From Squalus acanthias (taxonomy: Eukaryota), in NCBI GenBank assembly GCA_030390025.1, contig CM059453.1:6758001-6822000 (forward strand): a stretch of 64,000 nt of DNA, read 5' to 3'. The notes beneath the pieces were generated by a model, which saw nothing but the letters and a program-made list of their open reading frames with translations, was not told the DNA's origin and made no database searches. Both the position numbers and the translations under genes were made by a program. Numbering within the stretch: the first letter of the stretch is position 1; the number at the start of each line of letters is the position of its first letter. This document shows, piece by piece, positions 3,871-27,984 of the stretch.

Positions 3871-4038
3871 TCAGTTCTGTTTAATTGCTGCATATTCGCA
3901 GGTCTCCTCATTTTGAATATATTGATGATGTTTGCGGAAGTTGGAGACATTGACTGTCGCGTACGCAATCTCCTCATTATGAGCTCGTTTATTCGATTGT
4001 GCGGCGCCACGACCAGCCTCTGTACACCGATGGTCCCT
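3871..4038 (-). CDS. A1 terminal cytoplasmic exon: RDHRCTEAGRGAAQSNKRAHNEEIAYATVNVSNFRKHHQYIQNEETCEYAAIKQN*
   Basis: Acceptor ccgttacag, phase 0. ITIM IAYATV plus a distal EYAAI motif like the CD33 TEYSEI and MAG AEYAEI motifs. Not in the ORF track. Confidence 0.85.
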   Translation of the reverse strand, partial: RDHRCTEAGRGAAQSNKRAHNEEIAYATVNVSNFRKHHQYIQNEETCEYAAIKQN

Positions 4039-7000
4039 CTGTAACGGAACGTATTTGTGTTAGATGTGGTGTTATTGCAGATATGGAGCAGTATGCGATG
4101 GGAGTGTGCTGTCTGCAACAGAAGAAATCTCACTATTTTATCCCTGGTAAGTTGTCCAAAGGCGTTGATCCATGACATGAGCGTTGTTCAGTCTTGATGC
4201 AAGAAATAAAAAACTTGCATTTGTATATCCGGACGAGTCGATAAGGCTGGGGTGTGGGACTAAATTGGTTACTTCTTTGAAACAGCCAGCACAGGTACAA
4301 CGGGCCGAAATGTCGCTTTCTGTGCTGTAAAATATATGATTCTAAGGCTTCTAAATAGCATACTTGATCCGTGTTTTTATACATTGAGGTACAGAATATG
4401 AAAACAAGGAAGATACGCTAACCTTTATACATCAGTGGTTATGCCTCGGCTGGAGTATTGTTTCCAATTCTTGCATAACACTGTCAATAGGCTGTCAATG
4501 CATTAGTGAGCGTACAGTGCAAATTTACGATAATTAGTGGAGAAATGAGGGACTGCACTTAAACGGACAATCATGGGGAAACTGGAGTTGTCCTCCTGAG
4601 TATAGAGAATGATAAAGGGACATTAGATATTGGTGATCAAAATTCTGCAGAATTTTGATACAGTAAATAAGGAGAGATTGTTTTCACTGGCAGGAGCTTC
4701 GCTAACCAGGTAACACAGATTGAAGATATTTGGGTCAAGAACAAAATGAGAGATGAGAAGGTTTTATTTTTAACTGAGCGAGTTATTGGCCTAGAAATTC
4801 GATTAGGAGGCTTGCAGCGGTGGTAAGGATCACGCGCCATATCACCCACCGCGCCGGCCATTGTGTTTTGGGCCCACAGGAACTTCGGGTCCTGGGCCTC
4901 TCTCAAGAGCCGGCGCGCAGTGCTTGCGTGTCCCAGGGGCGCAGTTAATGTGATGCGACCCCTGGAATCACGTGGGCCATGGAGAGCCAATGGAAGCAGA
5001 CTATCTTTCATTCATAGATTTGAAAGGAGACCTGTCAAATCTATGAATTGAAATCGGCCCCAAAAGAACAGCTAAACCACAAGTAAATTTTTAAAAAAAC
5101 ATCACATTAATAAAATAACTAGTTAAATAAATTAACCACTTTAAACATAAATTTTTTTTTTTTAAATTAAAATACTTTTTAAAAGTTGTAAAAATAAACT
5201 AACCTTTCTTTTAAGTCTCTAAAAAAGATAAACCTGTTGAAAAAAATGTTAAATTATACTTCATTAACTACTTACCTTGTTCAAAAGGGGTCTTACGCTT
5301 CCTTCATACTTGCGTAGAATCTTGCATACAAACCCTCGCGTTGAAACCTGAAAAAAAACCTAAGTGTGCTGCGTGCGCGCAGCCTCTAGTGCGCACGCGG
5401 TTCACCTTGGAACCGCCCCCCCTCCCCCCCCCCCCCGCCGCCATACCGGAAGTGCCGGTTTCCCGCGCATGCGCAGTGCATGCAGGAAACCGGCACTTCG
5501 GGAACGAATACGGGTGAGTACGCACTGAGTACTCACACGTTCTCGCCCGAATTTTTGGGCCATTGTGATCTGGAAAGAACTTCTGAAAGGGCGGTGGCAG
5601 CAGATTCAGTCGTGACTTTCAAAAGGGAATTGGATATATGCATGAACATGAAAAAACATCAAATCAGGTCAAAGGGTGAAAAGCAGTGCAGTGTGACTAA
5701 TTATTTAGCTGTTTCAAACAGCCAGCACAGGCACCGTGGGCTGAATGGCCTCCTTCTTGGCTGTATGATTCTGTTATTATTAAGACCGAAGCGCTGCTAT
5801 GCAAGTAATAACTTTTGGATTCCTGCCACTGTTGTAGGAAAAATGCGGCAACCAGTTAATTGGATGAATGACGAATTAATCAGTTGTAGCTGGTGTTCAT
5901 TGTTGGAGAAATGTTAGCAAGGGCACTGGGACACCCCTCATCCGTCCCCACAGTAGGACCATATGATCGTTACCCTCCATAGGAGGAAACAAACGGGGCC
6001 TCGTTTAACATATAATAGAAAGGACGGGTATTCCGGCAATGCTACACACCTTCAGTGCTGAAATGAAGTTTCAGCCCAGATCATACGTTCAAATGCTGGA
6101 GCGAAGCTTGAAGCCACAAACTTCTTACCCAAAGGTGGGGAACATGCGGCCCACATCGGCAGCAAGATGCAACTCGGAAGTTGCACATAAACCTCAGGAA
6201 TGGCAACGATTATCCCCTCTGTGGTCGCTGACACTTTGTGATCTTGTTGGGCATTTAACAGATGAGACCTAATTGGTAGGGGGTAAGATGGCATTGGAAA
6301 GGCCTTCTTATATTAAGAATGTGTTTTCTGAAGGAACGGCAAGGTGAGAAATACCCCCTAATTGGATTTAGTAGGTCACTACACGTAGAGTCTGTAGCTA
6401 TGTTGCACTCTAAGCGACGTGAGCCGGTTAATCCTCCCTTAATGGTCAACAAGTTTCTGATACTCCAGTTTATCTGTTGGGTATTGCCCGTTATGAGTCA
6501 TTGCTTGTTGAATGCACACCAAACATCCTTCAATTGTCAGCCCAGCTTGGCATCACTTACGTCAGCCTTTAGTGCGTACTGCACCCGACTGTAAATCACC
6601 AAATCATCGTGTGCTTCGGAGACACGTGCAGCTTCTCCGTGTTTCTTCCTGAATAATAACAAATGCAAACGAGGCACTTCTCTTAATTAACTGGTATTTT
6701 TAGTGAAAACACACTACGCCTGCGCGATGAAGGTCGTCAGTGGGTCAGGAAAGGATTAAGAACATAAGAAATAAGAAATAGGAGCAGGAGTCGGCCATAC
6801 GGCCTCTCGAGACTTTTCCGCCATTCAATGTGATCATGGCTGAACTTCGACCTCAACTTCACTTTCCCGCCGGACCTCCATATCCCTTGATTCCCCTAGA
6901 GTCCAAAATTCTATATATCTAAGCCAAGAACATACTCAAAGACTGAGGATCCACAGCCCTCTGGGGCAGAGAATTCCGAAGATGCACAACCCTGTGACTG

Positions 7001-10000
7001 AAGAATTTCCTCCTCATCTCGGTCTTAAATGGCCGACCCCTTATCCTGGGACTATTACCCTATTTCTAGATACTCCAGACAGGTGAAACAACCTGTCAGC
7101 GTCTAGCCTGTCAATCCCCTTCAGAATCATGAATGCTTCAAAGAGTTCAACTCTCATTCTTCTAAACTCCAGATAACCTCGTCCCATTCTTCACAATCTC
7201 TCATCATAGGACAGCACTCTCATCCCAGGAAACAACCTAGTGAACCTCCGTTGCACCGCCTCCATGGCAAGTATATTTTTCCTTAGAGAAGGAGAACAAA
7301 ACTGTGCACAGTACTCCAGGTGTGGTCTCACCAAGGCTGTGTACAATTTTAGCAAGACTTCCTTACTCTTATACTACAACACCCTTGCAATAAAGGCCAA
7401 TATATCATTGCTTTCCTTATTGCTTGCTGTATCTGTATGCTAGCTTTCTGTGTTTCTTGGACGAGGACAGCCAAATCTCTGAATACCAACATTTGAAAGT
7501 TTCTTACGTAGAAACATAGAAACATAAAAAATAGGTGCAGGAGTAGACCATTCGGTATTTCGAGCCTGCACCGCCATTTAATGCGTTCATGGCTGAACAT
7601 GCTACCTCAGTACACCATTCCTGCTTTCTCGCCATACTCCTTGATCCCCCTAGTTGTGAGTATTATATCTAACTCCCTTTTGAATATATTTAGCGAACTG
7701 GCCTCAACAACCTTCTGTGGTAGAGAATTCCTCAGATTCACCACGCTCTGGGTGAAGAAGTTCCTCCTCATCTCAGTCTTAAATGGATTCCCCTTTATCC
7801 TTAGATTGTGACCCCTGGTTTTAGTTTTCGCTAACATTGGAAACATTCTGCCCGCATCTAATTTGTCTAAACCAGTAAGGATTTTAAAAGTCTCTATAAG
7901 ATCCCCCCTCATTCTTCTGAACTCCAGAGTATACAAGTTCAGTTGATCCAGTCTTTCTTGCGATGTCAGTCTGGCCATCCCAGGAATCAATCTAGTGAAC
8001 CTTCGTTGCACTCCCTCAATAGCAAGAATGTCCTTCCTCAAGTTAAAAGAGACCAAAACTGCACACAATACTCCAGGTGTGGCCTCACCAAGGCCATGCA
8101 CAACTGTAGCATCACCTCCCTACTCCTGTAGTCAAATCCCCTTGCTATGAAGGCCATCATGCCATTTGCTTTCTTGACTGCCTGCTGCACTTGCCTTCCC
8201 ACCTTCAGTGACTGATGTACCATGACGCCCAGGTCTCGTTGCACCTCCCCTTTCCCTAATCTGCCACCATTCAGGTAATAGTCTGCCTCCCTATTTTTAC
8301 CACCAAAGTGGATAATCTCACATTTATCCACATTGTACTTCATCTGCCATACATTTGCCCATTCACCCAAAATGTCCAAGTCACTCTGTAGCCTCCTAGC
8401 ATCCTCCTCATTGTTCACACTGCCTCCCAATTTAGTGTCATCCACAAATTTGGAGATATTACAATTAATGCCTTCGTCCAAATCATTAATATATAATGTA
8501 AACAGCTGGGGCCCCAGCCCCGAACCCTGCGGTACCTCGCTGGTCACTGCCTGCCATTCTGAAAAGTAACCATTTACTCCTACTCTTTGTTTCTTGTGTG
8601 CCAACCAGTTCTCAATCCACGTCAATACATTACCCCCAATCCTATGTGCTTTAACTTTGCACACCAATCTCTTGTGTGCGACCATGTCGAAGGCCTTCTG
8701 AAAGTCCAAATACACCACATCTACTGGTTCCCCCGCCACCCCGTCCACCCTATTGGAAACATCCTGAAAAGATTCCAGAAGATTTGTCAAGCATGATTTC
8801 CCTTTCACAAATCCATGCTGACTTGGACCTCTCATGTCGCCACTTTCCAAATGGTCTGTTATGACATCTTTAAAAATTGATTCCATCATTTTACCCACCA
8901 CCGATGTCAGGCTGACCGGTATTTAATTCCCTGCTTTCTCCCTCACTCCTTTTTTAAAAAGAGGGTTTACATTAGCCACCCTCCACTCCTTCGGAACGGA
9001 TCCAGACTCTAAGGAATGTTGGAAACTGATCGTCAATGCATCCACTATTTGCAAGGCCACCTCCTTAAGTACTCTGGGATGCAGACCATCAGGCCCTGGG
9101 GATTTATCAGCCTTCAGTCCCATCAATTTCCCCAACACCTTTTCCCGACTGATATGGATTTCCCTTAGCTCCTCCCTCTTACCAGATCCTTTGATCTATT
9201 TTATTTCCGGAAGGTTGTTTGTGTCCTCCACAGTAAACACCGAACCAAAGTAAGTTGTTCAACTGATCTACTATTTCTTTGTTCCCCATTATGACTTCCC
9301 CTGTGTCTGAATGCAGGGGACCTAGGTTTGTTTTTACTAACCACTTTCTTTTTACATATTTATACAAGCTTTTGCAGTCCGTTTTAATGTTATCCGCAAG
9401 ATTCTTTTCATATTTTATTTTCCCTGCCCTAATCAAACCCTTTGACCTGCTCTGCTGAGTTTTAAAGTTCTCCCAGTCCCCGGGTTTGCAGCTATTTCTG
9501 GCCAATTTGTATGCCACTTTCTTGCTTTTAATACTGTCCCTGATTTCCCTAGTTAGCCATGTTTGAGCCACCTTCCCTTTTTTAGTTTTACGCCAGACAG
9601 GGAAGTACAATTGCTGTAGTTCATCCATGAGATCTCTAAATGTATGCCATTGCGCTTCCACTGATAACCCCTTAAATATCGCTTGCCAATCTAATCTCGC
9701 CAATTCACGCCTCATACACTCAAAGTTGCCCTTATTTAAGTTCTGGACCACGGTCTCTGAATTAACTGTTTCCTTCTCCATCCTAATGTAGAACTCCACC
9801 ATACTATCGTCACTCTTCCCCAAGGGGCCTCGCACCACAAGATTGCTGATTAGTCCTTCCTCATTACAAAACACCCAGTCCAGGATGTCTTCCCTTCTAG
9901 TTGGTTCCTCAACATATTGGTTTAGGAAACCATCCCTTAAACACGCCAGGAAATCCTCCTCCGCCGTATTGCTTCCAGTTTCAGTAGCCCAATCTATATG

Positions 10001-13000
10001 CATATTAAAGTCACCCATGATAACTGCTGCGCCTTTTTGCATGCACCTCTGATTTCCTGTTTCATACCCTCCCCCACCTCACTACTTCTGTTTGGAGGTC
10101 TGTACATAACCCCCACTAACGTTTTCTGCCATTTGGTATTCTGCAGCTCAACCCATATTGATTCCACATCCTCCAAGCTAATGTCCTTCCTAGCTATTGC
10201 ATTAATCTCCTTTCTAACCAGCAATGCTACCCCACCCCCTTTTCCTTTTATTCTATCCTTCCTGAATGTTGAATACCCCTGGATATTCAGTTCCCAGCCT
10301 TGATTGTTCTGGAGGCACGTCTCTGTAATCCCTATCACGTCATATCCGTTAACATCAATTTGCACAGTCAATTCATCCACCTTATTACGGATACTCCTTG
10401 CATTATGACACAGAGCCTTAAGGCTTGTTTTATTAACAAGCTTTGCCCTTTTAGATTTATGATTTAGTATGGATCTTTGTGTTTCTTGCCTTTGTTTACT
10501 CGGATTTCCCTTATTGTTTCTCACCCTTCTAACATTTGTTTCTGACTGCAAATTACTTCCCCCTGTTTCGCTACATAGGTTCCCATTCCCCTGCCATATT
10601 AGTTGAAATCCTCCCGAGCAGCCTTAGCAAATATTACCCCGATGACATCGGTTCCAGTCCTGCCCAAGTGCAGACCGTCCCTTTTGTACAGGTCCCACTT
10701 CGCCCAGAACTGGTTCCAATGCCTCAGGTATTTGAATCCCTCCCTCCTGCACCACTGCTCAAGCCACTTATTTAGTTTCTCTATCCTCTTCATGCTACTC
10801 TGATTAGCACGTGGCACTGGTAGCAGCCCAGAGATAACTACTTTTAAAAAATATTCCAATTTACTATTCATCCGACCAAAGTGAATAACCTCACATTTCC
10901 CTACATTATTCTCCATCTGCCACCTTACAGCCCAGTCAATGGGCCAGAAATTCGTGTCTCCACGGGTGATTACGCGCCGTGTACTCACCCGCAGACCCAA
11001 AAAAGTGCCGGCATTGCGCATTCACTGCGCATGCGCTGTAAACTGGAACTTCCGTTCCCTTGAAGGAAGGGGTTCAGAGGTCAAACGCGTCTGCCTGAGA
11101 GGCAGCGCGCAAGCAGCGAACTTCCATTGTTTTTACAGGTTTTGAAGTGTGGCTTGGTCCCTGGCAGCTGTGCGGGGAAAGTGCAGGCGCAAGGCCTGCT
11201 TTTAACAAGGTAAGTGGTGAATTAAGTGAAATTTAAACATTTTTTCCACAGGGTAATCTTTTATAAATACTTTAAAGAAAGGTAAGTTTATTGTTAGCCC
11301 CGTTAAAAATTGTAATTAACTTTTACAAAAATTTCAGTTTTTGTTTAAAATAGTTAATTTATGTAATTTTTAGTTATTTTAAAAATGTGATTAAAAAAAT
11401 GTATTTGAAGTTTCAGTTAGGTTTTGGGTGGTGTTCTCTATTCATAGATTTGACAGGTCTTCCTGTCAAATCTATGAATGCAGATTCCCTGCTCCGATTG
11501 ACTCCCATGGCCCACGTGAACCCAGGGGACGCTTCGAACTTACTGCGTATCTGGGATACGCAAGCACTGCACACCGGCAGCTGCAGGAAGAACAGCTTCG
11601 GAATTCCACGCGGGCCCACAGCACAACGGCAGGCGCGCTGGGTAAGTGAATGTCGGGGGCTTGCACCCGCGAGAAGCCTCCGACCCGAATTTCTGGCCCA
11701 TTTAGTCTATCTCTATCCCTTAGCAGACTCTTTGTGCTCTCCTCACAGCTGACTGTCCAATCTAGCTTTGTATCATCAACAAACTTGGATACATTACACT
11801 CGGTTCCCTCATCTAGATCATTAATATAGATTGTAAATAGCTGAGGACCCAACACTGATCATTGCGGCACCCCACTAGTTGCAGCCTGCCAACCTGGAAA
11901 AGATACGTTTATACCTACTCTCTGTTTTCAGTCTTTTAACCAATCCTCTATCCATGCAACTACATTACCCCGCAACCCATTGAGCACTAATCTTATGAAA
12001 TACCCGTTTATGTGGCACCTTGTGTCTTTTACTTCTCCCGATTAGTACAGACCAGATCCGGAGCCCAATTCTTTTCAATTTCCACCAGCCAACATTTCAA
12101 AAGGGAACATTTTACTTTAATTGCTCTAGGTGAAAGTTGATTGTGATAAATAACTGTCAATGGGAGGTTTATTAATGATTTCAAACTGGGTAAATAGCAG
12201 AGGCAAGTGTTTCAATGAGTCAACGCAGTCCTGTCTATTATTAGGTACATCCCTTCAACACATTGGAGTTAGAAATTAGGAATACATCAATATTCCTCAT
12301 CAATCTTTTTCCGATCATTGATTAGTTGATATGATTAAGCATAGAATTGCCTTCTTTAAATATATCATGGTACATGAAGGGGTAAAAGCTAGCACCACTC
12401 ACAAGAGTGTCCTGGCTCATGTTGTTGCGGTTGTTGGCGAAATATTGGCTGTTGAGGGGCGGCGCCTATCCGAGAAGCAAAGTCATAGATTTCAATTGTA
12501 AACATCCTGTTCAATTGGTTGATGGATAAGTTTGATTGGCAACAGATTGTAAACCGAACTGGGGGTTATTTGAATTCAATTGGAGCCGGTCACAATTTTA
12601 AGGTAATTATCAGCCTGTCTATTAAAAACAGCGAGTCTGTCGAGAGCTTTCAAAGAGAGCTAGTCAGTCCAAATAGCTTAAGTCACTGGTAAGAATAAGA
12701 TAACAAGTGCAACATAAATAACTGCTAATATCATATTTTAGCACATCAGTCAAGCCCAATTTTGAAATATAATGTGCTTTTCCTTGAGCCAAGCAAAATA
12801 ACGACCACTGTAAACGTATGTTTCACGTTAATTTTACTATTTGCTTGTTGTTTTGCTGTTTGCTGGACTAGCTTGATTGATAGAACTTCAGTGTCAATCT
12901 GGTGTAGTGTTATGCTGAGAGTCAGTCATGACAAGAAGGCTCGTGTGAGGGTGCCCCATAAAACCAGAAGCAGAAACAAACTGAAAGGGATTGTAAGCCC

Positions 13001-16000
13001 ATTCTTTTAGCATACTGAAAACTTTATCCTGATTACACGGGAAGTGTAAACATTCCCTGGCACAAAAAGCGCCAGCGATCAGAAGTCCAAAAATGTCCAC
13101 TTTAAACAGAAGGAAACAGATCCTAATAACATAACAGGAAGAATGTACAGACAGCCTGATTCAAGCAGCCACTAATATTACTCTGTATTTGATGCTTGGA
13201 GTTGCGAACTACTGGTCAGGGATGATTGACCTTCCTACTTTACGCACCAGTTTAGGCTGATGCCCACTGTACTCGCGGGATTTAATTTAAAGGAGATTTT
13301 GATACACGGACGTTCTGATGCAGGTTTCCTTTGAAACTTAATTCTGTATAATTAATAATCACACCTACCTTTTTATCTTCAGCGTGAGTACGGCTGCAAT
13401 TAGAATAACAAGCCCAATGGTTCCTCCGCCTATTATGAGGACGATTGTCCTGGAGAATATTCCTAAAATGTTGGATAACATTGCTCTATATTAGGAATTT
13501 GGTTTAAAACAACAATCTATCTTGGAAGCACATTTGTGAGTGTGAGGGAGCAAGTTTCCTTTATTTTCGGATCACAAAGCTAATGGTAAATGATGTACTC
13601 CACTTGATTCAACCTGATGATCCTTTTGTAAAGCCTTTTGTTCATGTGTTGCGGCCGGGCATAAATTGGAATTAATAAATTAAGATTAACTGAAGTAAAA
13701 ATCTCAATTGACAAATTAAGTTCACTCCACAACCCACCCTAGGAAAAACAGTGGGCTTAATCTGATTGGAATACAGGGCTTCCAAGGTCACCAGTTACAT
13801 CGGTAAGATTTAAAATCTATAGCGATAATTCAATTTTGCTTAGGCTATTGAATATCGGCTCTACATAACCAAATGTGTATGAACACGATTGAAATGAGCA
13901 TGTAGCTACAAAAGGGTAGATTGCAGTTTGCTATCATGTATTGAGATAATTTAGGATTTTCTAAAGAGTTTAACTTGATTCAGAAGCATTTGTTTTCCAA
14001 GATCACTGGCTATTTCTGGTGATCAAATAATTTCAACTTATCTTGAAAATATAAACCGAACAAGTTGCAGAAGAATGAAAGTTAAAATGGATAATGCCGA
14101 CCGCACCATTCAGTTGGTGATTGATCACTGATGAAAGTGGTCCTAACACTAATTCGACATAGATTCCGTATGGACTAACTAAGTGAAGCTGATATTTGCT
14201 GATACTAACACCATTCAGTTACTGACTGACCAGTGATGCACCAACTCCCTTATAGTATTAAATTACAGATAAATTAAACACGTACCCTTAGAGTGGAGCT
14301 GATAATTACTGACAGAATCACCGTGCTCGTTTGCTGCAACACATGAGATCAGGTTTCCGGTTCCGGTTGGGTGAGTCAATCTCAGAGAGCTCTCCATGAG
14401 GTGACTATTCACCGCCCAGGAGATGATTTCCACATCTGACCTGTTCCCAGTGAGGATTCTCCCATTGAGGCCCCACGTGATGTTTCCCGGGGGATTGGCT
14501 CTGATCCGGCAGCTACAGTTCGTCCAATTCTCAGAGCTGGTGCATGTCGGGCCTGCTAAAATTGTGGCTTTATCTAAAAAAAATGGAAACTTCAATAGTA
14601 AATGATCATGTAAATAGTTGCAGTTTCGAAGTACAATTAATTCATGAGTTGAACTTACCATAATAGTTCTGGTAGATATATTTTAAGATGAAGCAACCTA
14701 TGTTGCGCCAGTTGATGGCGTATTATATTTTCACTTATAATAGGTGAGCTCGTTAGGAACAATTTCATATTAAACCTAATTGGTGTTCACTCCAACCGGA
14801 CCTTTCCTGACAGATATTGTGGGGGGGTTCCTCAGAAATAGCAAGGTCTGTGTGTTAATTATCTATAATATACCCACAAACGTGATTCACCCGTCACTGT
14901 TTTAACAGGTGAATTAATTTCAATTTCTTCACTTTGTGTACTGTTTTCAACATTTGCGTTTGTGGTGGACAGAAGTGATTCTTCAATAAATGTCCAGCTA
15001 ACAAGCCGACACTTCAAAGGACCTTGTCTCGGAATATTAACCTGTCAACTCAACATTAGTACAAGTAACAGAAGTTGTATTCAAGCCATTATTTCAGATT
15101 TCATTTTGGAAAACTTCTGCTCATGAAATTGCTGTATGTCAGTTCTAAGGATTGGAATATTGTTTACTTCAGACGACGAGTATTATTTATTAACAATTAG
15201 TTGGTTGAGTAAAGTTCCCAGTAAATGTACTGCTGTCGTAACCTCATAAATGTAAGACCTGCTGCATTTATGGGACATTATTCCAGTTTCCACTCCTGTC
15301 ATACTGAGCGAGATGCAAGGTTAGTTTCCATAATTGGAGCCATCGAGGTAGTTTCCCGCTATTTCCGCGGGAAGGGGTGAACCTATCCCAAACTCATGTA
15401 CACGGGCACCTTCCAGCAAGCAGGCAAGAGAAAATTGGAATTTAATGCAGAATTCTTGAAGTGAAAGGCTACTATCTAATTGAAAATTCATACATACTAA
15501 CATTGGACTGAAATCTGTGTGGAGCGGTTTGTGGTGCCCACGGCATTTTCAGCGATGCACCAATATTCACCGGCGTCCTCAGAACGAATGTTGTGGAATA
15601 TTTGATTTAGTTCACCACTGGAAGATCTGCTGATCTCCTCACAATTTTTCACCCAACTTAATCTGACCTGGGGTTTTCCACAGGCTTTGCAGTATAATAA
15701 TAATGAACTTCCTTCCACAGCTACTATAGTTGAGTTGATGGCTGGGAGGTCCAGTCCATCTTAAACAGGCGTTAATGCAAAACGTGATTGTCGAATAAGC
15801 ATAATTGAGCTCCTAATTAATTCATTATATTGGGTATGGGGATCGGGCGGGAAATATGGAGTTAAGTTCGATGATCAGCCATGATTGCCGGAGTGGTGGA
15901 GCAGGCTCGAATGGGCCGTATGGCCTACTCCTGTTCCAAATTCTTAAGTTCTTATGAAGCTCAACCAGAGCTGAGATCTGGTGTCATAGCTTCAGCTCCT

Positions 16001-19000
16001 AACTCGGCATGGCTTTTGTTGCTTCCATTTATGACTGCCTAAACTCAGAACCTGACTGGAAGTTCATAGAATAAGTAGTAACAATCACATTAAAACATCT
16101 GTTGGAGGCACCATCATTGATTCATGGATATGAATGTTTCTAATGTAACATGACTGATGAGAATTACATGTGAGCCATTCCGAACCTTTTTAACCCCTAA
16201 TAAATTACTTGTGGTAAATGTGCAAATTTGGAGCTGGTTGGCCGACAGGATAAGTCTGTTTAGTTTAGACCGGACACTTACCTTTAATCTCCAAGCTAAC
16301 ATTTTGTGCTGAGGAAGTTGGTATACCATCAATTAGAATTGTGCATCCCAGAATTTTCCCGTCATGAGCAGATGATGGTGTAAAGTTGACGACGGATGAA
16401 ACTGTCCGAGAACCTGAAGTTTCATTGTTAATTTCTGCTCCAACTTGAGTATCCATTGCGGGTGGAAGGGACACATTATCAAGAATCCAATTCAGTTTCA
16501 GGTTGCCATCCGGGCAGTTGTGGGTGACGGAACAGGACAATCGTGCAGTTTGTCCAGCGATCAATTCCCCATAACCTGAAATCTCTGGCATTTCTATAAA
16601 AACGGGAGAAAACCAGTTTGTTAGGTACATTTCAGGGTTAAAACGGGGGATCGATGGCTTACAATTAAATCTGAGAAAGAAATAACAAGAAAATCACATT
16701 TTGTTCATTTTTCTCTGCCACGTGTTGCAAGTTTGTTGACCTTTCTAAATTACTCCTCGCAGTTGTACTGCACTTTTATGCCTCATCGGGTAACATATGG
16801 CACCACTTAATTAAACATTAGTCGTATATCTCCAAATTATTTGTAGCATGGATATTGTCCAGTGAACAAATTTTGCACGCTGGACTTAGAATTAACATTA
16901 ACTCCTCAAATGTCACGAATATTTCATCCTCTCGTATACCTCGTTCTGCACCAGCAATTGCCTATGTGGTGGTGATGAATGCAGACCCAGAGACAACTCG
17001 ATTCTGTCGTCAAGAAACGTCAATATAGAACGATAATGCTCAAGACATGGACAGACCAGACAAAGGACGGGTAACACCGCCTTGTGTGGGAGAACCAGAG
17101 CAGGTTCCTCGCTTGTAAATCTGAAGAAGGCTTCAGCAGAAATACTATTTGTATCCGTGGGATTTGAATGAACAAATATATTATAACTTGAACTGATTTT
17201 CACGTTACTGAAATATCTACTTTTTAATTAAGTTCTAATTAAAAGCGGGGTAAATGAGCGCTGGATAGGGAAAGGCACGAACAAAGACTGCATTAATTCA
17301 ACGCCTTTTAAGTACTTGTGACGTCAAAAGACGCTTCACCAAAAAGTAACTTGTATTGTAATCAAGCAGCCATTGCCGACGGTAAACACAGGAGATTATT
17401 GGAGAAGATATTAATTTGTTTGGAATTAAGGATTAGGTAGAAATTGCAATATAAACTGTTTTGAAGTGACGAAGCAGCGAGTCGCTGTTAAGCGCAGTTG
17501 CTCAGAATAGTTGGATCCCAGAACGGTGTCCCACAGGGTTGTCCTGTGGGATTGCTTCTATTCACTGTGTGCATCAATAATTTGGATAAAACGCTAAAGA
17601 GAATGATGTCAACATTTCCCGGCAGGAATTAATTGGATTGCAAAAAAATTAAAAATGGGTGGGGTGTACAATGAGAGGTGCATCCAATATCGTCAGTTTG
17701 ACACCCATGCATGCCAACCTTGCAAGTGCAACTCCCAGGAGATAATGAGAGAACTAAAGCGAGTTTCAAACGGATACTGCAGATATAGTAGAATGGGGAG
17801 ATAAGAGGCAGATATCATAAAAGTTCAGAAAATATGAGGTGTTAGATGTTCATTTGAATCGTAGTAAGCTGGGAGATCTGGAAGAGCAGAGTAATTTGGG
17901 GTCAGGTTCATGAGGCAGTAAAAGCAGCACCTCCAGTGGGAAATTGTAGGATGATGTTTCTGGAGCTCTGGTTTTAATGGCAAGAGATCAATAATATAAA
18001 ATCGAGAATAGTGGAGATTCTAACGAGAACAGTAGTTAGTTCACAGTTGTAGTAAGAATGTGGGTATTGGGCTCCAGTCTATAGGAAGGATTTAGGGCGG
18101 ATTCGCGTAGTTTCTGGCTGGTATGAGGAAGTTTAAATAACAAAAAAATATTTAAAACTTGAGGCAGATGTAATTAGTTTAGAACTGATTTTCTGATGAT
18201 TTGACAGAAGTGCTTAAACTTATTAAGCAACGGGACAGAGAAGATAGAAGGAGACTGAAGTAGAATTTGAAATGGCCGCCCTGGTCAAATCTCTCACTCC
18301 AGATAATTCACCCATTGGAGCAACCGCCTAGTTAAATTGCCTTTCATTTCATTGGAAATAATGAGCTGATGGTTTATGTATTGCAAGTAGGACCAAAAAT
18401 CGTCAGTTTTAGGTTCAGTCAACAAGTACTAATCTATCCTCATGTGAACATTTTCAGAATAGGCTCGACTGGTATTTGAAGGGAATTGCAAAAAAGGGAT
18501 ATGGGAACTGAGCAGACACATGCGATTCGGAGTTTTGCTCATGTGAAGGACAAACAGCCACACTGACTGTCTGGGCCGAAGGGCCTGTTTTACTGCTGCA
18601 ATTTCAATATACTTCTGTGTTTAGGATATCAGACATCTGCGACCCTTATCAGTATCCCTGCACCTTATGTTTGAACAACCCTTTGAGATCGGTCAGGGAT
18701 ATTTTAATATTTGCCCACTTTGCACATAGGTTGATTCATACTGAAGCACTGGAGTGAAAATGTACAAAAGGAACAAAGGGAATACTCACCTAAAACAGAA
18801 AGAAATACGTCAGTACACAGAGTGCGACGTCTATTAGTGGACCAGGCCGAAGCGATCTCGATGCTGAGTTCGTATGTACCCTCATCACCCTTCCTGATAT
18901 CCTTTAGCAGGAGGGTACACTGTTTCATTTCAATATTACACTTGAACTTAGCTCTTTCACCATAGTTATAATGCTGCCTGTATGGATCTTTAGAATCACA

Positions 19001-19818
19001 GATAATGGAGAAACCTTGGTTACCAGGAGCATGTTCCCTCTTTAACCACGTCATATCAGCGATTCTACGATCGACTGGATAATCAAACGTACACCAGATC
19101 TCTGCACATGAACCGGCCACCGCCGACACAGCTTTTGGCATCAGCACAGAGAATTCAGCACTAAAAACAACTGCGAAAAACAAATTAGACACCCTTTAAT
19201 TAGCCATTCAAAATGCATTTCAGCATCTTTATCATCCATTAAAGTATTTGTTAATTGACAAATAATCGCCCATCACAATAGCAATTAAAATATCAGTGAA
19301 GGCCTTTTCAAAATCAAGAAAAAATTCTAAATAAAATCCAAACACAACAACTATTGAAATGGTCATAGGAGTACCTATTTGATGGGAGATTTATGAAACG
19401 GTAATACACATATATAATACTCATCTAAAAATCGAATACATATCCAATAACAAGTAAGCGTACACCCAATAAAAATTCAAATTAAATATACATTAAAATA
19501 TTGATCAAAATAAATATTAAACATCTATTGAATCTCCTTTGAATCACTCAATCAATATGAAGTAAGCTTTATTAAATGTGCTTTACAATAAAATATTCTG
19601 AAAATTCCTATATTTAAATATTATTTGAATAGGCTGTATACGCTGTAACACAACAACAACGCACGCGTTTAGCAATCATGAAATTCCTATTTCACAAGTT
19701 CTGAAATCAATAACAAAAAAATCATTCATATTCTTTATTTTGCTCTTCCTTTCCCACAAGATATAAATCACTTGCAGAAATTGTAAAGAAGCATCAGAAA
19801 TGTACCTTCTGTCAACAT
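3871..19818 (-). CDS. Siglec/MAG-like type I Ig receptor gene A1 (8 coding exons, about 543 aa; V-C2-C2-C2-TM-ITIM tail)
   Basis: Exons 19776-19818, 18790-19170, 16282-16593, 15502-15759, 14286-14573, 13369-13462, 6561-6648 and 3871-4038 join in frame (1632 nt) with no stops; Ig exons are phase 1-1. Confidence 0.88.
4240..5770 (+). mobile_element. Degenerate CR1 LINE 3' fragment, interrupted by a MITE
   Basis: RT C-terminal remnants (cctcggctggagtattgt...) and a 3' UTR (gggctgaatggcctccttct..gtatgattct); uninterrupted in copy 2 at about 46620-47350. Confidence 0.65.
4788..5561. mobile_element. MITE (774 bp), PIF/Harbinger-like, specific to copy 1
   Basis: TIRs GGCCTAGAAATTCG / CGAATTTTTGGGCC with ATT on both sides; the empty site is visible in copy 2 (gagttgttgtaatc, about 47128-47141). 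Confidence 0.88.
5860..6150 (-). mobile_element. Degenerate Deu-domain SINE
   Basis: acggggcctcgtttaacat...aaaggacgg...ggcaatgct matches the SINE at 1-200; duplicated at about 47440-47710. Confidence 0.55.
6561..6648 (-). CDS. A1 cytoplasmic exon 1: (R)KKHGEAARVSEAHDDLVIYSRVQYALKAD
   Basis: Acceptor ttattattcag, donor GTAAGT; phase 2 in matches the TM exon and phase 0 out matches the last exon; ITIM VIYSRV; nearly identical in copy 2. Confidence 0.88.
6757..7505 (-). mobile_element. Older CR1 LINE 3' part (continues at 10843-10940 and 11700-12025)
   Basis: AAGAACATAAGAAAT tail repeats and RT C-terminal remnants; orthologous to about 48325-50030 in copy 2. Confidence 0.8.
7508..10842 (-). 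mobile_element. CR1 LINE, 5'-truncated: ORF1 esterase end plus frameshifted APE-RT ORF2; specific to copy 1
   Basis: ORF1 SGNH-like ...YKRDGLHL; APE motifs NARSIRNK, ITET, MGDFN; RT motifs PQGSGLGP, FVDD; (TATGTTTC)n tail; absent from copy 2. Confidence 0.93.
10941..11699. mobile_element. MITE (759 bp) inserted in the older CR1
   Basis: TIRs GGGCCAGAAATTCG / CGAATTTCTGGCCC with AAT/ATT flanks; an internally deleted orthologue lies at about 49145-49703. Confidence 0.88.
12403..12465 (-). other. Candidate 63-nt cassette exon of A1 with in-frame stop (RRRPSTANISPTTATT*)
   Basis: Acceptor ctttgcttctcggatag, donor GTGAGT, phase 2-2; conserved in copy 2. Confidence 0.4.
13369..13462 (-). CDS. A1 transmembrane exon: GIFSRTIVLIIGGGTIGLVILIAAVLTLKIKR
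   Basis: Acceptor acattttag, donor GTAGGT; uncharged hydrophobic stretch followed by basic residues. Confidence 0.9.
14286..14573 (-). CDS. A1 membrane-proximal Ig domain (MAG D5-like, C-x7-CxC...NP...W...C)
   Basis: 288 nt, phase 1-1; CTSSENWTNCSCRIRANPPGNITW...ISCVAANEHG. Confidence 0.92.
15502..15759 (-). CDS. A1 third Ig domain (C2/I-type)
   Basis: 258 nt; EGSSLLLYC..GKP...W...DAGEYWCIAEN; weaker splice sites (tttaag / GTTAGT). Confidence 0.85.
16282..16593 (-). CDS. A1 second Ig domain (Siglec C2 with extra Cys, CSVTHNCP)
   Basis: 312 nt, tttttatag / GTAAGT; resembles MAG CMVPDNCP; FTPS..HDGKILGC. Confidence 0.92.
17420..18605 (+). mobile_element. Highly degenerate CR1-like LINE remnant
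   Basis: RT-like remnants (ggtgtcccacaggg...tgcatcaataatttggat) and a 3' end (ctgggccgaagggcctg); shared with copy 2 (about 55520-56700). Confidence 0.5.
18790..19170 (-). CDS. A1 N-terminal V-set domain, Siglec-type
   Basis: 381 nt, ttttcgcag / GTGAGT; GSCAEIWCTFDYP...W...R...CTLLL...DEGTYELS. Siglec B-E disulfide pattern, no F-strand Cys. Confidence 0.93.
19776..19818 (-). CDS. A1 putative leader exon MLTEGTFLMLLYNF
   Basis: Hydrophobic 14 codons + 1 nt, the same 43-nt size as the leader of gene B, but it requires a GC donor (GCAAGT). Confidence 0.5.
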
Positions 19819-20714
19819 TAAGAGAGGCAGCAGCACGGAACTCCTCATGGCTGTAAAATGCTGCCGATTTCACTCGCAAAATGAAGAACCCAATTCACAA
19901 TTTACACCATTCAGATTTCAGCATTCTTCTTTCCAGTCACTTCTTGGATTTCTTTGCTAATCAGCATCAGACTATCGGGGAAGTCCGATTCGGTTCCTAC
20001 CGATCTGTAGGAACAGTGCTCACTCAATCAACTCCGTTGGTGAGGTAGGCAGCTAACACATCTTGTACATGGGCTGCGTGTGACCGACTGTTACAGAATA
20101 TGATGTTATAGTATGTTTAAACGTTGCAAAAGAATACTTAATACAGAAACAATATCTCTCTCTCTCGAACAAACACACACAAACACCAAATGTACTGTTA
20201 TTTATGATATTGATATGTTGGCGCCTTTGTCAGAATGGCACCGCCCACGCTTGCAGACGCCTCTGACTCACATTTCACACATATTCGCTTTCTGGCAGCT
20301 AATACGAGATGAATGTTGAACAGTTGTTGACTACAGTTAGTTAGCATGCTGCAGTCTATGGACGTGTGGTTTCGTCACCTTCTTGAAGGAGCGCTCCAAC
20401 ATGTATCTCTGACGTCCTAGATAGGAGCTGTTTGACAGTAGACCGTTTGACGCTGTGGTAAACAGCCTTTCTTCGAAATATTTAACTCTTTACATTCACA
20501 CTCAAGCTCAGTAATTTTGCAGAACTTAAGACAAATGCCAACCTATTTGTTGCAGTGCTTTTATTAAGATTTAGTTATGCGCTCTGGGACGTGTGAAATG
20601 GACTTAAGGTTCCTGTCGTAAATACAAATATTGCTGTACACAGACACAGATAAAATTGATTGAAGCAACATTTTCGGTCAAACAGATCAGTGTTGTCAAT
20701 ATCGGGAGACACTG

Positions 20715-20895
20715 TTTTTCTCATTGGCCACCCGGTGCGGAGGGAATGTCGGAGGACCTCCCAGTGGGTCTGCTTCTGGGCCTGGAAAAGGTGGCCATTC
20801 ACAGGTCCAGGCATCACCCGGTCCAGGGGATCATTTGGTCTGACTGCCTGCCTCCCACCACGTTCGTGTGTCCCTGGAGTGGGAGCATGCGGTGA
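20715..20895 (+). mobile_element. Tx1/L1-clade LINE 3' fragment
   Basis: GHPVRR / SEDLPVGLLLGLEKVAI...DCLP, homologous to 36604-36894; copy at about 58806-58986. Confidence 0.7.
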
Positions 20896-21256
20896 TTGCC
20901 TGTATGTTTTAATTCCAGATTTATTTAATTTACTGAATTAAAATACCCCCAGCTGACATGTTCTAGCGCGATCTGTTTAAAACTACCCCGAGCTCAGGGG
21001 AATTGCGCCGAAAAGTACCGCTTTCGAGCGGATACTCCAGGCCCTTGTATTTACATATTGCCATTCACAAACACAGTACATCCAAATACAGTGTTAAACC
21101 CAAACTGAGCCCCGATGTTGACCACACATCATTTCAACTTTCGGCCTCAAAGCAAACTGGATCTTGTGTGGAGCTTCATTGAGCAGGGTGCATTGCACCA
21201 ACCGCCACTCTGGGATTGACCAGACATTATGGGTTATTTTATTGTTAAAGCAAAGT

Positions 21257-21430
21257 GAGACCTGGGTCTGAACACACATCCCTGAACTAGTCAGTAAAGC
21301 CAAGCTGAGACCTGGGTCTGAACACACATCCCTAAACTAGTCAGTAAAGCCAAGCTGCGACCTGGGTCTGAACACATATCCCTAAACTAGTCAGTAAAGC
21401 CAAGCTGAGACCTGGGTCTGAAAACACATC
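21257..21430. repeat. 50-bp minisatellite, about 3.5 units
   Basis: Unit GAGACCTGGGTCTGAACACACATCCCTAAACTAGTCAGTAAAGCCAAGCT starts at 21257, 21307, 21357 and 21407. Confidence 0.95.
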
Positions 21431-23214
21431 GCAGGGATTTTTTCCCGAAGATATAAATAGCCACATTCTTTCCAGCAGCGCTGAGACTCGAATCTAAAAT
21501 CTCAAGTTATCACTTCACAGTTCTAGCACTAAATTCAGTAAATTCATAAACCTGTATTTGTAGCAACTCGGATCTCAATGAGTTAATTTCAGCAGATTTC
21601 AGCTCGCTGGACTGTTAATATAACCAGCTGAGGTCACTTATAAAAATGGCAGTTTACGCTCTTGAAACTGTTTTCTGAGAAACACTTGAACATTTGACAT
21701 TTCAGATACGTGTTGTGCCCCCGACCAACTGAAGGTGATCAACCCACACGTCTGCAGACAACGGCTACAGGACAAACCACGGCTTTACACTTCAAACACT
21801 CACAGTTCAAGGGCTGATAAATAGCTCAGTGTGTGGGAGTTGAGAGTCGAGGCGTCTAGAGTTGATGTAGAAGGCTATTTTATATATTGCAATATAAAGT
21901 GCCACTGCCTGTCCTATAACTGTGCAGATGATGAGGGGGCTGGTTGTATCGCCGATCAGGTTTCTTTTGCAGTAGGTGAGCCTCATATATCCTGCAACAG
22001 CGGGCCACACATTGATGTAAACTGTTATATTTGAGGAGTCCCAGATTCCCAGCAGTTTAGATCACCAACATTTGAGGAGTGGCGAAAGCTGTGTGAGCAA
22101 CCACGGTTCCCAATGATTGGTGGGTGGCGAACAGCTGACCTCCTAATACTGTGATTCGATTCATTACGAACTCCAATATATTACTGTCGAACCGAACACA
22201 GAAACTAAATTACTTATATCAGAAATAAAAACAATTTATGCCATTTTGATATCGTCCACCGCCTCTAGTCATGAAGAGTATTACATTTATTTCCATTCTG
22301 CTATTTAGCGCAGGTAAAATATTCATTTTTAATATTGTATGTCAGAAAGAATAACAATGTTTTAGACATAGCATACGGTTAGTCAATGATTTGTGCATTC
22401 ACACAGTGGGTATTTAATGTATATTTTATTCGGAACTTTATTATGTATTATATAGGATTGATTTGATAATTACGCTATGACTTATTGGCTTGCAATTGAA
22501 TATTTAATAGAATTTAATGAGTTTTAGAGAAAATTGCACGAATTTCATTAGATGTACGAATGAATATGTTAGTGGGTGTTTAAATGTTAAATTAATAGTA
22601 TTTAACTTGACGGTCAGGGTATGTTTATGTTGCTATATTATTGCGGATTTCAATGGGTGTATAATTTCTATTTTTTCACCATTTGTCCATAATTCACGAT
22701 GGTCTGTGAAGGTGCCGTGGAAGGTGTCGGCGGTGAACAGGTCATGTGCAGAGATCCCGTGCACATTTGATTATCCAGCCTATGGCCTCAGTCCACTGGG
22801 TATGTGGTTAAAGTGGGATCCTGATCCTGTAACCTCAGGGGTCTCGATTATCTATGATTCCCGGGATTCAGAAAACGTGCCCTTGAAATATAGCGGTCGA
22901 GCTGAGTTCACCGGCGAATTTATAAAGAAACAATGTTCCTTACGGTTAAAGGACATCAGCAAGCTCGATCAAGTTGCCTATTATTTCTTATTGAAGATCA
23001 TCACCGCCCAGAATAACATAGAAAGATATTCTTCCGGATCTAAGGTCACTCTTTCTATTTTATGTAAGTATTTGAATTGTTCCTTTATAGTTTATCTTCC
23101 ATCTCCTCAGTGTCATTTAATTTGAGCTTAAATGTAAAGATTTCTTAATACTCATGGCCCAAGTTACAGGCTACAGCGGCAGGGCTGGTACACTGCATGA
23201 TACCCATGATTTTG

Positions 23215-24685
23215 TTATAGAATAGAATCATAGAATCATAGAATCTTACAGCACAGAAGGAGGCCATTCGGCCCACCACGCCTGTGCCGGCTCTGTGAAA
23301 GAGCTATACAATTTAGTACCACACCCTATGTTTTTCCACAGAAATTGTAGATCAGCCTTGTTTTAGAACAGCTCTAATTGCTTTAAAAAAATTCCCATTG
23401 AATCGTATTCCACCAGCCTTTCAGGTGGTGCATTCTAAATCTTAGCAACCCTCTGGGTGAAGAAATTTCACCCCATTTCCACACAAGTTCTTATGTTCTT
23501 ATGTCTGCTATAAGGACAACAAGCACAGCTTCTCCAATCTCTCCACGAAACTGCACGTCCTCATCCCTGGTATTATCTTGGCAAAAGGCTTCAGTACCTC
23601 CTCCAGGGCCTTGACCTCCTTCCTCAAGTGTAATTCCGAGAATTGTACCCAAAACTCCAGCTGAGGCAAAACCAGAGATTTGAGAAACTTGAGCATGACT
23701 TCCTTGTTATTGTTTTCAATGCCCCTATGTAAAAAGAACCGAAGTGTCCTATGTGCTTTCTTTTTAAACGCCTGGTAAATTTAACCTGCCATCTTCAAAT
23801 AAATGTCAATATGTACCCCATGTCCCTCTGTTCTTGCAGCCTCCCTCAAAATGGGACTATTTAGAGTATGATGCCTCTCCATATATTTCTCCGAAACTGC
23901 ATTTGTGCTTCACACTTATCCGCAGTAAATTGCATCTGCCATGTGCCTGCCCATTTTAACAGTCTGTAGATGTACTCCCGAATTCTGCTACAATCATGCT
24001 CACTATTTAATACGTTGCCAAGTTTTGTATCACCCGCAAACTTCGAAACGTTACTCCCAATACGCAAGTCTAGGTCATTTATATAGAAAAAGAATAGCAA
24101 TGATCCTAATATCGACCCCCTGGGGGATCACACATCAGACTTCGCTCCTGTCAGAAATGCAGCCGTTCACCACGACTCTCTGCCTCCTATCCCTTAGCCA
24201 CTTTCCTAATCACGTTGCCACCATCCCTTAAATACACTGTTCTTCTATATTCCGAATAGTCTGTTATGAGTTACTTCATCCAATGCCTTTTGAACGTCCA
24301 CATATACAGCATCTACTGTACTAACTTCATCAACCCTCTCTATTACTTCATCAATAAATCAATCGGGATAGACAGTCACGATTTGCATTTAACAAAGCCC
24401 TGCTGGCTTCCCTAATAAACCCATGCGTCTCCAAGTGAGAATTAATCTCGTCCTTCACAGTGTACTTATTTAGCTTTCCCACCATTGTCGTTTGACTGAT
24501 TGAGCTGTAGTTCCCAGGATCCTCCGTCTCCACATTTTGAACAGCGGTGTAACAGTTGAAATCCTCTAGTCTTCTGGTACCACTCCAATATCCATGGAGG
24601 ATTGAGAGATTGTGGTCAGAGATTCTTCTATATCCATCCTCGCTTCTTCAGCAACCTCGGATGAATCCCATCTGGACCAGTTGAC
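23215..24685 (-). mobile_element. Degenerate CR1 LINE (RT and 3' end)
   Basis: (ATAGAATC)n tail; YINDLD...SKFAGDTKLG; copy at about 61255-62840. Confidence 0.85.
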
Positions 24686-24909
24686 TTGTTATGTTTTCAC
24701 CTGAACAGATATTCAGCACTGCCATTCTTACACACTTACATAAATTGGCTGTAATGTTCAGTTAGAAAGAGAAACACTTAAGGTTGTTTTCAGATGTACA
24801 GACTGTCGGGTCAAAATTCAATCCTTCGTGGATTCTGGACAAAAATTTCAAGGTTTGTACTTCTGAGGGGGAATAAGTGGACAAGACTTAAGGATAGGAG
24901 GGATATCTC

Positions 24910-25160
24910 AACAATGCAATAGTGACCAGATGATCTGTTTTAGGTGCTGGTTGATGCAAAATATGAATCAGGACACGGGACATTTGAAATAATACATTGG
25001 GATATTTTACATCCACCTGTGAGGGAAGACGGGTCATCGGTTTAACGTCTCATCCATCAGATGTCATCTCCAGCATTGTAGTATTGCATCAGTACTGCAA
25101 TGGAGTGTCAGGCTACAGCTTGTGATTTAGTCTCTGAAGTGGGGCTTGAACCCCAAACCG
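24910..25160 (-). mobile_element. Degenerate Deu-domain SINE
   Basis: tacatccacctgtgagg..gacggg..tcggtttaacgtctcatcc; copy at about 63065-63310. Confidence 0.65.
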
Positions 25161-27984
25161 GGTCTTGCTTTCTTCTGATATATTTGCACTTTCCCGCTGT
25201 TGTTAATGGGAACAAACGAGGATAGTTAACCTTTTCCTCTCCCTGAAGACCATCTGCAGCGCTCCTCTCACGACGTTAAATGAGGTCAAATTAATTATAA
25301 GCAAGAGTTGAATTCACCCCTGTCCCTCAAATGGTAAATTAAGCGTTTCACGTGACACTGAGCAATTATTCTAAGAGTATCCTGGATTCTATCCCAAATG
25401 CAGATATGGAACATAATCTTGGACCCAGTTTTCTATGTTATGTCAAACCTAATGTTGAGTTGAAGCACTTGTGTTCAATAGAGTGGTGACTGAACTATAA
25501 GAAACAGGACAGCAATGAATAATTCATGTGATATAGTGGGTGATAATTCGGTTCAGGAACACATATATCAATCGATTGATTCCGTAACCGTTAAGTAATA
25601 ACTGACAATAGGCTCCTTCCCCTGCACCATAGAGTCATAACGGCACAGAAGGAGGTCATTCGGCCCATCGAGTACTTGTCCGTCACCAGAGAACAATGGA
25701 AAAAAACAATAATTTTTATTCAAGATATTATCTGATACGTTGGGCTGAATCGCCTTGACTTTCACTCCATATTTTATTATTTTGAAAGCCACTGTAACGC
25801 GAATTTCTTTCTCTCCTTACAGATAAGTCCTGGATATCAGTCTCTGGGGAACTGATTGCTGGACAACCAGCACATTTGATCTGCTGAGTCACCACCAGTT
25901 GCCCGTCCGCCAAACCTGAACTGATGTGGATTCAGGACGAGGATAAACGTCCTTCACTGCAGGATAGTAAAACTTCAAGACACAGTGGAAACTTATCGAT
26001 GGTTCCTGGACGCTTTCATCAAGTTTCACCTTCACCCCATCACTGGACCATAAAAGGAAAAGGATGGGATATAAGCTTGCGGTTGATGGTGTCGTGGGTA
26101 CCGTTCAAGAAAACTTAGACTGGACTGTAAGTAACTGCTCTACCCTTCATTCTACCATCCTGTTGGTAAATAGGATCCAAACGTATCTTTATTCTCAGTG
26201 GAGTGATAGCTAGCCTGAAAAATTGAAAATGTCAAAACTGCGATGGATAGATTTTTTTTTAGGAAGGGTATTAAGGGTTACAATAAAGCAAAGGCGGGTA
26301 GACGGAGTTAAGATATGGATTAACTATGATCTAATTGATCAGTGGAACAGACTCGAAGTGCTGAATGGCCTATGTTTCTATAATCAATGAACCAAATTCA
26401 CAATCTGAGATTTATTGTAATTTATATTTTTTAACCTTGATACAGACCCGTGGAGTAATATTGGTCGCTCCGTGGTTGTCATTTACGTCAAATATTATTC
26501 CAAAGGCTCCTAATTCCTGATAAAGTTGCAGACAGAGAGTACCTGAAACAGAGGGTCTGTGTCGAGTTGGCTGGGGCGCTGGTCGGGTTACTACAATTGG
26601 CCTGAACAGCTCTGTTTAACGGATGTGAGAGCCCACTGTTCTTGCTCTGGGAGGAATGGCCGCTTGATTGACTTATCGGTGGAGCAGAACCACGTCCAGG
26701 CAGTCACTACAACTCTTTGAAGAGAAGAGGAGGAAAGGTTAATATAAAGCTTGGCTCAGATCTAAATAAGTTTGTCGGTGGAACATCAACAATCTCAAGC
26801 TGGCTTTTCAATTTACAGTTGACAATATAACCACCATATCTGCTTTGATATTCTTCTTTGGTTGTCAACCGGATTGTTATTTGAACCTCTGCTCCGACAT
26901 TTTCCTATAACACCAATGATCTTGCGTGTTTCAGATGCACTGTGGAAACCAAGCCTCAATTCCTCTATAGTAAAAGTGGAAGGAAGTTCATTATTATTAT
27001 ACTGAACGGCCCTGGGGAACCCGACGGTCAGTTTAACATTGCTCCGAGAAGGGACACAGATCAGCAGGTGAACTAAAGCAGATATTTCACAGCATTAGTT
27101 CTGTTGATGAGGGGGAGTATTGTTGCGTGGCTGAAAATAACCTGGGCACCGCAAACAGCTCCAATCAGATTTCGGTACAATGTAAGTGTTATGTGATCTT
27201 ATTTAATTTATAAAGGGACATTAATGGTCGGTCTCAAATGTTGTTTGGTACCGCTCCTCTGAACGTTCGCGGCGCTATCTAAATCGGTCGGCTTAGTGAT
27301 GACGAGTGGGCAATACTCTTGGCGCGCCGGTACTCGGGCCAGCGGAACCCCAAGGTTTCCTTTTCGAGGCAGAAGGAGCTGAATAGGACAATTAGAATGG
27401 TGGCAGTGATGGAATAAAGCGGGTTATTCTGGAATATTATGCGCAGTCTCACCCGGATCAGTAGCTCCACATCTAACGCACTACTTTCTGTTACAGAGAC
27501 AAGACAAGTATAGAAACACTGTTGTGAGAGGGGCTCCATCAAACCAGTCAGCTCAAAGTGAAGAGGTCCTGTATGCATCTGTCAGTGTTTCAAACGTTCG
27601 AAAGCAGGAGCGATATCTCCAACACGAAGATTCCAGTGAATAAGCCGCAATTAAAAGCAAATGAAAATCAGCGGCATTCACCCTATTGTGACAGATGGAA
27701 CTGGTCAATATCTTCACACAATTGTTTTTTATGATATCGAACAGAAACTCGCACTCAAGGAAGTGCTGTGATAATGGAGATCACTCAGAGAATAATAGCT
27801 AATATTTTAACATCTCTTTGTGAGACGATTTGATTTACAATCCCAAAGACTGTCCACTCCAAACATACTTCCGAAACTGTGCAGGAAGGGGGCGTGAATG
27901 TTCAATGTAATTTTAAACTTTTTTATCGCTTTAATAATAAAATAACTATTTCCCAGTTCGAACTTTTATTTCATTTCGGAACAA

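Follow-up and report, generated by a model that had tools for sequence, protein, structure and literature searches.

Siglec-derived receptors of sharks and rays with inhibitory-type tails, and a branch lacking the sialic-acid arginine

We find that a 64,000-nucleotide stretch of the Squalus acanthias genome (assembly GCA_030390025.1, contig CM059453.1, positions 6,758,001 to 6,822,000 of the forward strand; hereafter the window, with all coordinates counted from its first letter) carries a complete gene, copy A, for a Siglec-type receptor with four immunoglobulin (Ig) domains and a tail bearing motifs of the immunoreceptor tyrosine-based inhibitory type (ITIMs), and that copy A and its intact duplicate, copy C, fall in a shark and ray subgroup in which no sampled member has the arginine essential for sialic-acid binding. 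The best reading of these data is an old, expanded subfamily of inhibitory immune receptors whose ligand is likely not sialic acid. For copies A and C themselves we consider it probable, if with some reserve, that the product is a four-Ig ITIM receptor without the sialic-acid arginine that sits on shark leukocytes, binds a non-sialic ligand and damps activation via SHP-1/SHP-2.

Gene model of copy A and the missing arginine

Copy A lies on the minus strand and comprises eight exons spanning 19848-3871, in which every acceptor is AG and every donor GT; joined in phase, they give an open frame of 543 amino acids running from an ATG at 19848 to a TGA at 3873-3871, bearing out the initial annotation of a complete gene with a V-set domain, three C2-type domains, a transmembrane (TM) segment and a tail. 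The start proposed there, at 19818, is a second methionine within the signal peptide, and the in-frame ATG that yields a full signal peptide lies 30 nucleotides upstream, in exon 1 (19806..19848); a similar leader is found in two relatives, P0003 and P0004. Exon 2 (18790..19170) encodes a Siglec-type V-set domain, as judged from Pfam, a PDB match and AlphaFold, with Ser117 (codon 18865-18863) replacing the essential arginine. Pfam and alignment identify exon 3 (16282..16593) as the first C2-set domain, with an extra Cys168 at the position of the Siglec V-C2 interdomain cysteine, and Pfam and a sequence match identify exon 4 (15502..15759) as a third Ig domain resembling MAG d3/d4. Exon 5 (14286..14573) is a membrane-proximal Ig domain with a CxC motif, placed by the gene model and by comparison with other CxC domains. 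The gene model also gives exon 6 (13369..13462), an uncharged TM helix, exon 7 (6561..6648), with the ITIM VIYSRV, and exon 8 (3871..4038), with the ITIM IAYATV, a terminal ITIM-like motif CEYAAI and the stop. Across the four Ig exons Pfam returns V-set/Ig_CD22, C2-set, I-set (I/C2) and a weak Ig match, the last being the CxC domain. An acceptor at 13485 for the TM exon results in a frameshift, and 13462 was taken instead.

The encoded protein thus runs from a signal peptide through a V domain, three C2-type domains and an uncharged TM segment to a tail with a pair of ITIMs and, at its end, an ITIM-like motif. Its 85-residue tail places Y478 and Y514 in the ITIMs and Y537 in the ITIM-like motif, and two ITIM-consensus motifs arise by chance in 0.47% of 20,000 shuffles of this tail. 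An uncharged TM segment combined with (I/V/L/S)xYxx(L/V/I) motifs in the tail is the sequence signature of an ITIM receptor.

The extracellular part has the Siglec architecture, with a sialoadhesin-type N-terminal V-set domain followed by C2-set domains. A PDB sequence search with the V exon gives nine matches in total, the best being sialoadhesin (E 1e-11), MAG and Siglec-7, and the AlphaFold model of the V domain (predicted local distance difference test 85) has sialoadhesin as its top Foldseek match. The Siglec cysteines C36, C41, C99, C162 and C168 align with the corresponding cysteines of MAG; C41/C99 (the B-E intrasheet pair) and C36/C168 (the V-C2 pair) align with those of both MAG and sialoadhesin, and these two pairs would be expected to form disulfide bonds. 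Additional cysteines at 72, 92, 133, 272 and 285 lie outside the Siglec pattern, those at 92, 133 and 272 being present in copy C as well; they could be unpaired or mediate dimerization.

The essential F-strand arginine is absent. Ser117 occupies the site in both A and C, with YELSIE standing opposite YNFRFE of sialoadhesin, a feature overlooked in the initial annotation, which had described the gene as Siglec/MAG-like. This arginine is described as essential for sialic-acid binding and as present in virtually all Siglecs (PMC13358205), and the name Siglec therefore fails its defining test here. We searched the V domains of the subgroup for a conserved basic patch that might stand in for the arginine and found none; taken with the essential role ascribed to that residue, this makes it likely that the ligand is not sialic acid. 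A Siglec scaffold and inhibitory tail minus the arginine also characterize human Siglec-XII and great-ape Siglec-V (PMC6288428), but these are recent single-gene losses, Siglec-XII being in the course of pseudogenization, while here the loss is common to a subgroup that spans sharks and rays and has gone on expanding.

An alternative that we rate as unlikely is that copies A and C encode a sialic-acid or anionic-glycan receptor acting through a non-canonical site, for example arginines 129-131 (RRR), which lie by the G strand in both copies and adjoin the usual binding strand. The Siglec fold and cysteines of copy A are intact; moreover, glycolipid binding of a non-canonical kind has been reported for some bacterial Siglec-like adhesins (PMC13358205) and for Siglec-6, which binds outside the canonical pocket (PMC10122656), so that loss of the arginine is no proof that glycan binding is lost, a consideration that counts against a non-sialic ligand. 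However, the patch at 129-131 is not conserved, several subgroup members having acidic or polar residues there, and the commonest replacement of the arginine is isoleucine, in 12 of 19 rows.

An elasmobranch family and its relation to MAG and CD33-related Siglecs

The V-domain tree contains 82 rows chosen from about 185 fetched proteins, each contributing a single V domain: the named elasmobranch relatives that have such a domain, minus most isoform-like duplicates, and other, hand-picked Siglec-like rows, many of them unnamed. This tree and a second one, of V plus C2 domains, rest on few columns and on predicted gene models, with a single MAG sequence (turtle) and no named mammalian CD33-related row. 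The V tree resolves an elasmobranch-only clade of 33 of the 82 rows with support of 100/99; three of these rows come from the window and the remaining 30 represent 10 shark and 3 ray species. Turtle MAG, fox sialoadhesin, a shark CD22-like protein and the turtle CD33-like, teleost and frog rows all fall outside it. Copies A and C belong to a subgroup of 19 rows drawn, besides the window, from 10 shark and 2 ray species, and none of the 19 has the arginine (12 Ile, 4 Ser, 2 Thr, 1 Leu); P0016, the sister row of this subgroup, has it, as do 43 of the 49 rows outside the elasmobranch clade. The 19 rows still cluster when the arginine column is removed. Within the clade as a whole the arginine is present in 8 of 33 rows, a distribution for which the tree needs five changes. 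In the V plus C2 tree (52 rows) the elasmobranch clade reappears with 99/99 support, and 14 rows that all lack the arginine, two rays among them, group at 100/99. Most simply, these patterns would mean that the arginine was lost once, ahead of the shark-ray split, in a subgroup that went on duplicating.

Relatives from 13 shark and ray species are present in RefSeq under automatic names, those elasmobranch proteins called "sialic acid-binding Ig-like lectin 5/8/12/13/14", "MAG-like" and "Schwann cell myelin protein-like" being members of this same family, with V-domain identities of 31-52% and CxC-domain identity reaching 77%. The closest row to the V domain of the window is a sawshark protein (52% V identity). 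We read these names as automatic best-match labels, and the orthology and sialic-acid binding that they imply are unsupported by the sequences. The family ranges from two to six domains through exon gain and loss, so that four Ig domains is one layout among several, and the tail tyrosine motifs are retained in most full-length relatives. Averaged over the subgroup members, identity to copy A climbs from 42% in the V domain to 52% in the first C2 domain, 60% in domain 3 and 66% in the CxC domain, and V is the most divergent domain across species in the subgroup. A search of the ESM Atlas returned only MAG, CD22 and Siglec clusters. The proposal of a lineage-specific immune receptor family holds for a Siglec/MAG-related ITIM family confined to elasmobranchs in our sample, but not for an expansion peculiar to this species, given its 13 shark and ray species.

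P0004, a four-domain relative, matches MAG in the PDB (E 5e-52) ahead of Siglec-8 (6e-17) and CD33 (1e-14); MAG is also its best match by fold, its domains 3-4 aligning to MAG d4-d5. These matches make common ancestry with MAG plausible. Copy A resembles MAG in its V, C2, d3/d4-matching and d5-matching domains, the last with CxC, and in its cysteine pattern, and fish MAG likewise has an ITIM; copy A differs in having four Ig exons, one domain fewer than the five of MAG, in lacking the arginine, which MAG keeps, and in being multi-copy and fast-evolving. The initial annotation further portrayed the gene as a MAG ectodomain combined with a CD33 tail. Such a chimera is needless, since fish MAG itself carries an ITIM, described as ancestral (PMC7226832), and a CxC membrane-proximal domain is widespread, occurring also in Siglec-like proteins of teleosts, frog, turtle and a second elasmobranch family.

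A quite improbable alternative is that these genes are MAG co-orthologues serving cell adhesion in nerve or epithelium, their ITIM tail merely inherited. The matches of P0004 and the fish MAG tail fit this idea, and forcing the whole elasmobranch clade together with MAG is not rejected (approximately unbiased test, p-AU 0.28). Forcing A and C with turtle MAG is rejected (p-AU 0.005), and with it 1:1 orthology to MAG. MAG is also single-copy and conserved, quite unlike a family that duplicates rapidly, contains pseudogenes, shuffles domains and has a highly variable V domain.

The shark genes share with CD33-related Siglecs an organization in clusters, birth-and-death turnover, an ITIM with a terminal ITIM-like motif, and a V domain that is the most variable. 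They differ in forming a separate clade in both trees, with the turtle CD33-like rows outside it (CD33-like being our own motif reading of rows that the sources name otherwise), in having three tyrosine motifs, and in a subgroup that lacks the arginine throughout.

Two relatives, P0044 (Cetorhinus) and P0076 (Mustelus), combine a V domain that retains the arginine with an arginine within the TM segment and a tail without ITIM, and are candidate activating partners, by analogy with coupling to FcR-gamma via a TM arginine. The second elasmobranch Siglec-like family (P0026, P0030, P0039, P0015, P0110, P0137 and P0131) is mostly arginine-bearing, with tandem V domains; in Scyliorhinus canicula and Mustelus its contigs are equal in length to those carrying the first family, which suggests that both lie in one large cluster.

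Duplicate copies, divergence and transcript traces

Copy C (46230..57940, minus strand) is an intact eight-exon duplicate, also of 543 residues and with Ser117, whose exons at 57940-57898, 57263-56883, 54698-54387, 53800-53543, 52618-52331, 51506-51413, 48218-48131 and 46397-46230 are identical in length to those of copy A; 68 of 543 residues differ. Copy B (22683..27664, plus strand, ends approximate) is a pseudogene of the sister subgroup. Its V exon is open with a dead acceptor (CAT instead of CAG), two C2 exons (near 25823-26126 and 26935-27181) contain stops and frameshifts, and the last exon contains a stop; we looked for its CxC, TM and first tail exons and did not find them. Copy D (60723..61103, plus strand) is the V exon of copy B's duplicate, with the same dead acceptor, the remainder lying beyond the window end, and leucine occupies the arginine site in both B and D. 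Copy E (31956..32117, minus strand) consists of an isolated final tail exon that contains an in-frame TAG, and for which no other exon was found; an open reading frame downstream of it (31604-31921) has no Pfam match.

The pairs A+B and C+D represent the same head-to-head unit in duplicate, with 84-96% identity, which argues for one segmental duplication plus older paralogues and not for five independent births. The initial count of two intact and three disabled copies in 64 kb can be kept with the caveats that D is represented only by its V exon and E only by its last exon; birth-and-death evolution likewise stands as duplication and pseudogenization, and not as five separate births. Besides these receptor copies, no other protein-coding gene was recognized within the window. 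Remnants of long interspersed nuclear elements (LINEs) lie at 7500-10620 (reverse transcriptase), within intron 6 of copy A and largely missing from copy C, and at 40480-43370 (reverse transcriptase and endonuclease). Minisatellites occur at 21246-21430, 59337-59471, 28310-28440, 32155-32311 and 35179-35696, and the 50-bp array comprises 3.7 units in the first duplicate against 2.7 in the other.

Divergence between the units is uneven. Outside exons it falls from 8.6% at 11.3-18.5 kb to 1.7% at 18.5-23.5 kb, the unit elsewhere being 8-12% diverged; this low-divergence tract (18500..23496 against 56600-61534) includes the V exon, the leader exon, the common head-to-head upstream region and copy B's V exon. 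Gene conversion across the V exon region would fit this tract, although it may be an assembly mosaic. Homogenization of this kind in the 5' region has been reported for SIGLEC11/16, where gene conversion extends across the ligand-binding exon (PMC5701461).

A gap of 699 N (38796-39494) lies between the two duplicate units and, like the 5-kb tract differing by 1.7%, would fit copies C and D being an uncollapsed second haplotype, the local expansion then being partly an assembly artefact. We hold this to be very improbable, as most of the unit is 8-12% diverged, far above usual allelic levels, and LINE insertions differ; a haplotype artefact would moreover leave the family-level result unaffected.

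Contigs from three runs of one study, which carry the same species label and may be RNA, were compared with 13300-19900 at 85% likeness. They contain no splice joints over this interval, the uncovered parts being uninformative. Two contigs match exon 3, one with 18 differences from copy A over 170 nt and the other with 15 over 192 nt, and a further contig matches the V exon over 151 of 187 nt with 13 differences; among the differences listed, those equal to copy C number 8 of 9 and 9 of 10 in exon 3 and 2 of 9 in the V exon. The V-exon contig ends at 19172, where a spliced-junction match would end. This is a weak hint that some paralogue is transcribed, with no evidence for A or C themselves. 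An intronic repeat at 15835-15958, with a depth in the thousands across the three runs, is probably a transcribed short interspersed nuclear element.

Predicted function and significance

The product of copies A and C would be a single-pass, four-Ig, Siglec-derived receptor sitting on shark leukocytes, whose variable V domain would bind something other than sialic acid, probably a protein. Going by what is established for ITIM receptors, Src-family kinases would phosphorylate the tail tyrosines once the ligand is bound, and the phosphorylated tail would recruit SHP-1/SHP-2 and damp activation. Cluster behaviour and V variability point to leukocytes and to host-pathogen conflict; the way divergence is distributed, together with the analogy to the CD33-related Siglec, LILR and KIR clusters, suggests leukocyte expression and a pathogen-driven turnover of the ligand-binding domain.

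Coding divergence between A and C indicates that their reading frames are maintained with residues under loose constraint. The two copies differ at 105 of 1632 coding nucleotides with zero stops (P about 0.01 if neutral), and have no coding indel, where the rate seen in introns would predict 5.2 (P about 0.005).

Beyond the Siglec-6 precedent, several points weigh against this functional prediction. For A and C the ratio of nonsynonymous to synonymous divergence comes to 0.70, and exon divergence (6.4%) lies little below that of introns (8.3%), which indicates weak constraint. Support for the 19-row subgroup in V-only trees is moderate (99/72 with all columns, 92/87 with the arginine column removed), and the arginine is missing from 6 of the 13 rows of the sister subgroup, making the site labile family-wide. 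All relatives are known as predicted gene models, no shark MAG was retrieved, and neither shark MAG nor chimaera is represented among the named rows. The ligand of copies A and C, their expression and their signalling are predictions only.

That the arginine-less genes are retired and drifting to loss, as the ratio of 0.70, three disabled relatives within 64 kb and the Siglec-XII precedent (PMC6288428) might suggest, is the least probable explanation of all, since the subgroup persists with open frames in 12 of the shark and ray species sampled, many of these frames with intact tails, and the differences between A and C include neither a stop nor an indel.

A broader scenario, tentative and on balance unlikely, extends the preferred reading of a non-sialic inhibitory receptor to an ancient Siglec-derived paired-receptor system of sharks and rays, in which one branch moved off sialic acid to become a diversified, protein-binding inhibitory family, maybe reading major histocompatibility complex class I or microbial proteins, as a counterpart of LILR and KIR, with the ITIM-less relatives bearing a TM arginine as activating partners.

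ITIM-bearing Siglec-like clusters are already known, as is arginine loss in single primate genes (PMC6288428), and the proteins themselves are in RefSeq. Arginine loss has been treated as a step toward Siglec retirement (PMC13358205, PMC6288428). Fish genomes are said, from teleost data, to lack inhibitory CD33-related Siglecs (PMC7226832); a teleost Siglec-like protein, P0130 (Coregonus), has the arginine and three tail tyrosine motifs, in conflict with that statement. We found no description of the elasmobranch Siglec-like family or its arginine-less branch in the open-access literature, although subscription reviews may cover them, and the main text of one shark single-cell paper contains zero mentions of siglec or CD22.

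If our reading is correct, the Siglec scaffold was turned to a different ligand early on. The names that RefSeq gives these genes are misleading. Inhibitory receptors on the leukocytes of cartilaginous fish are poorly known, and these proteins would be concrete candidates for them; the presence of arginine-bearing and arginine-less paralogues in one cluster would make the question of the ligand directly testable.

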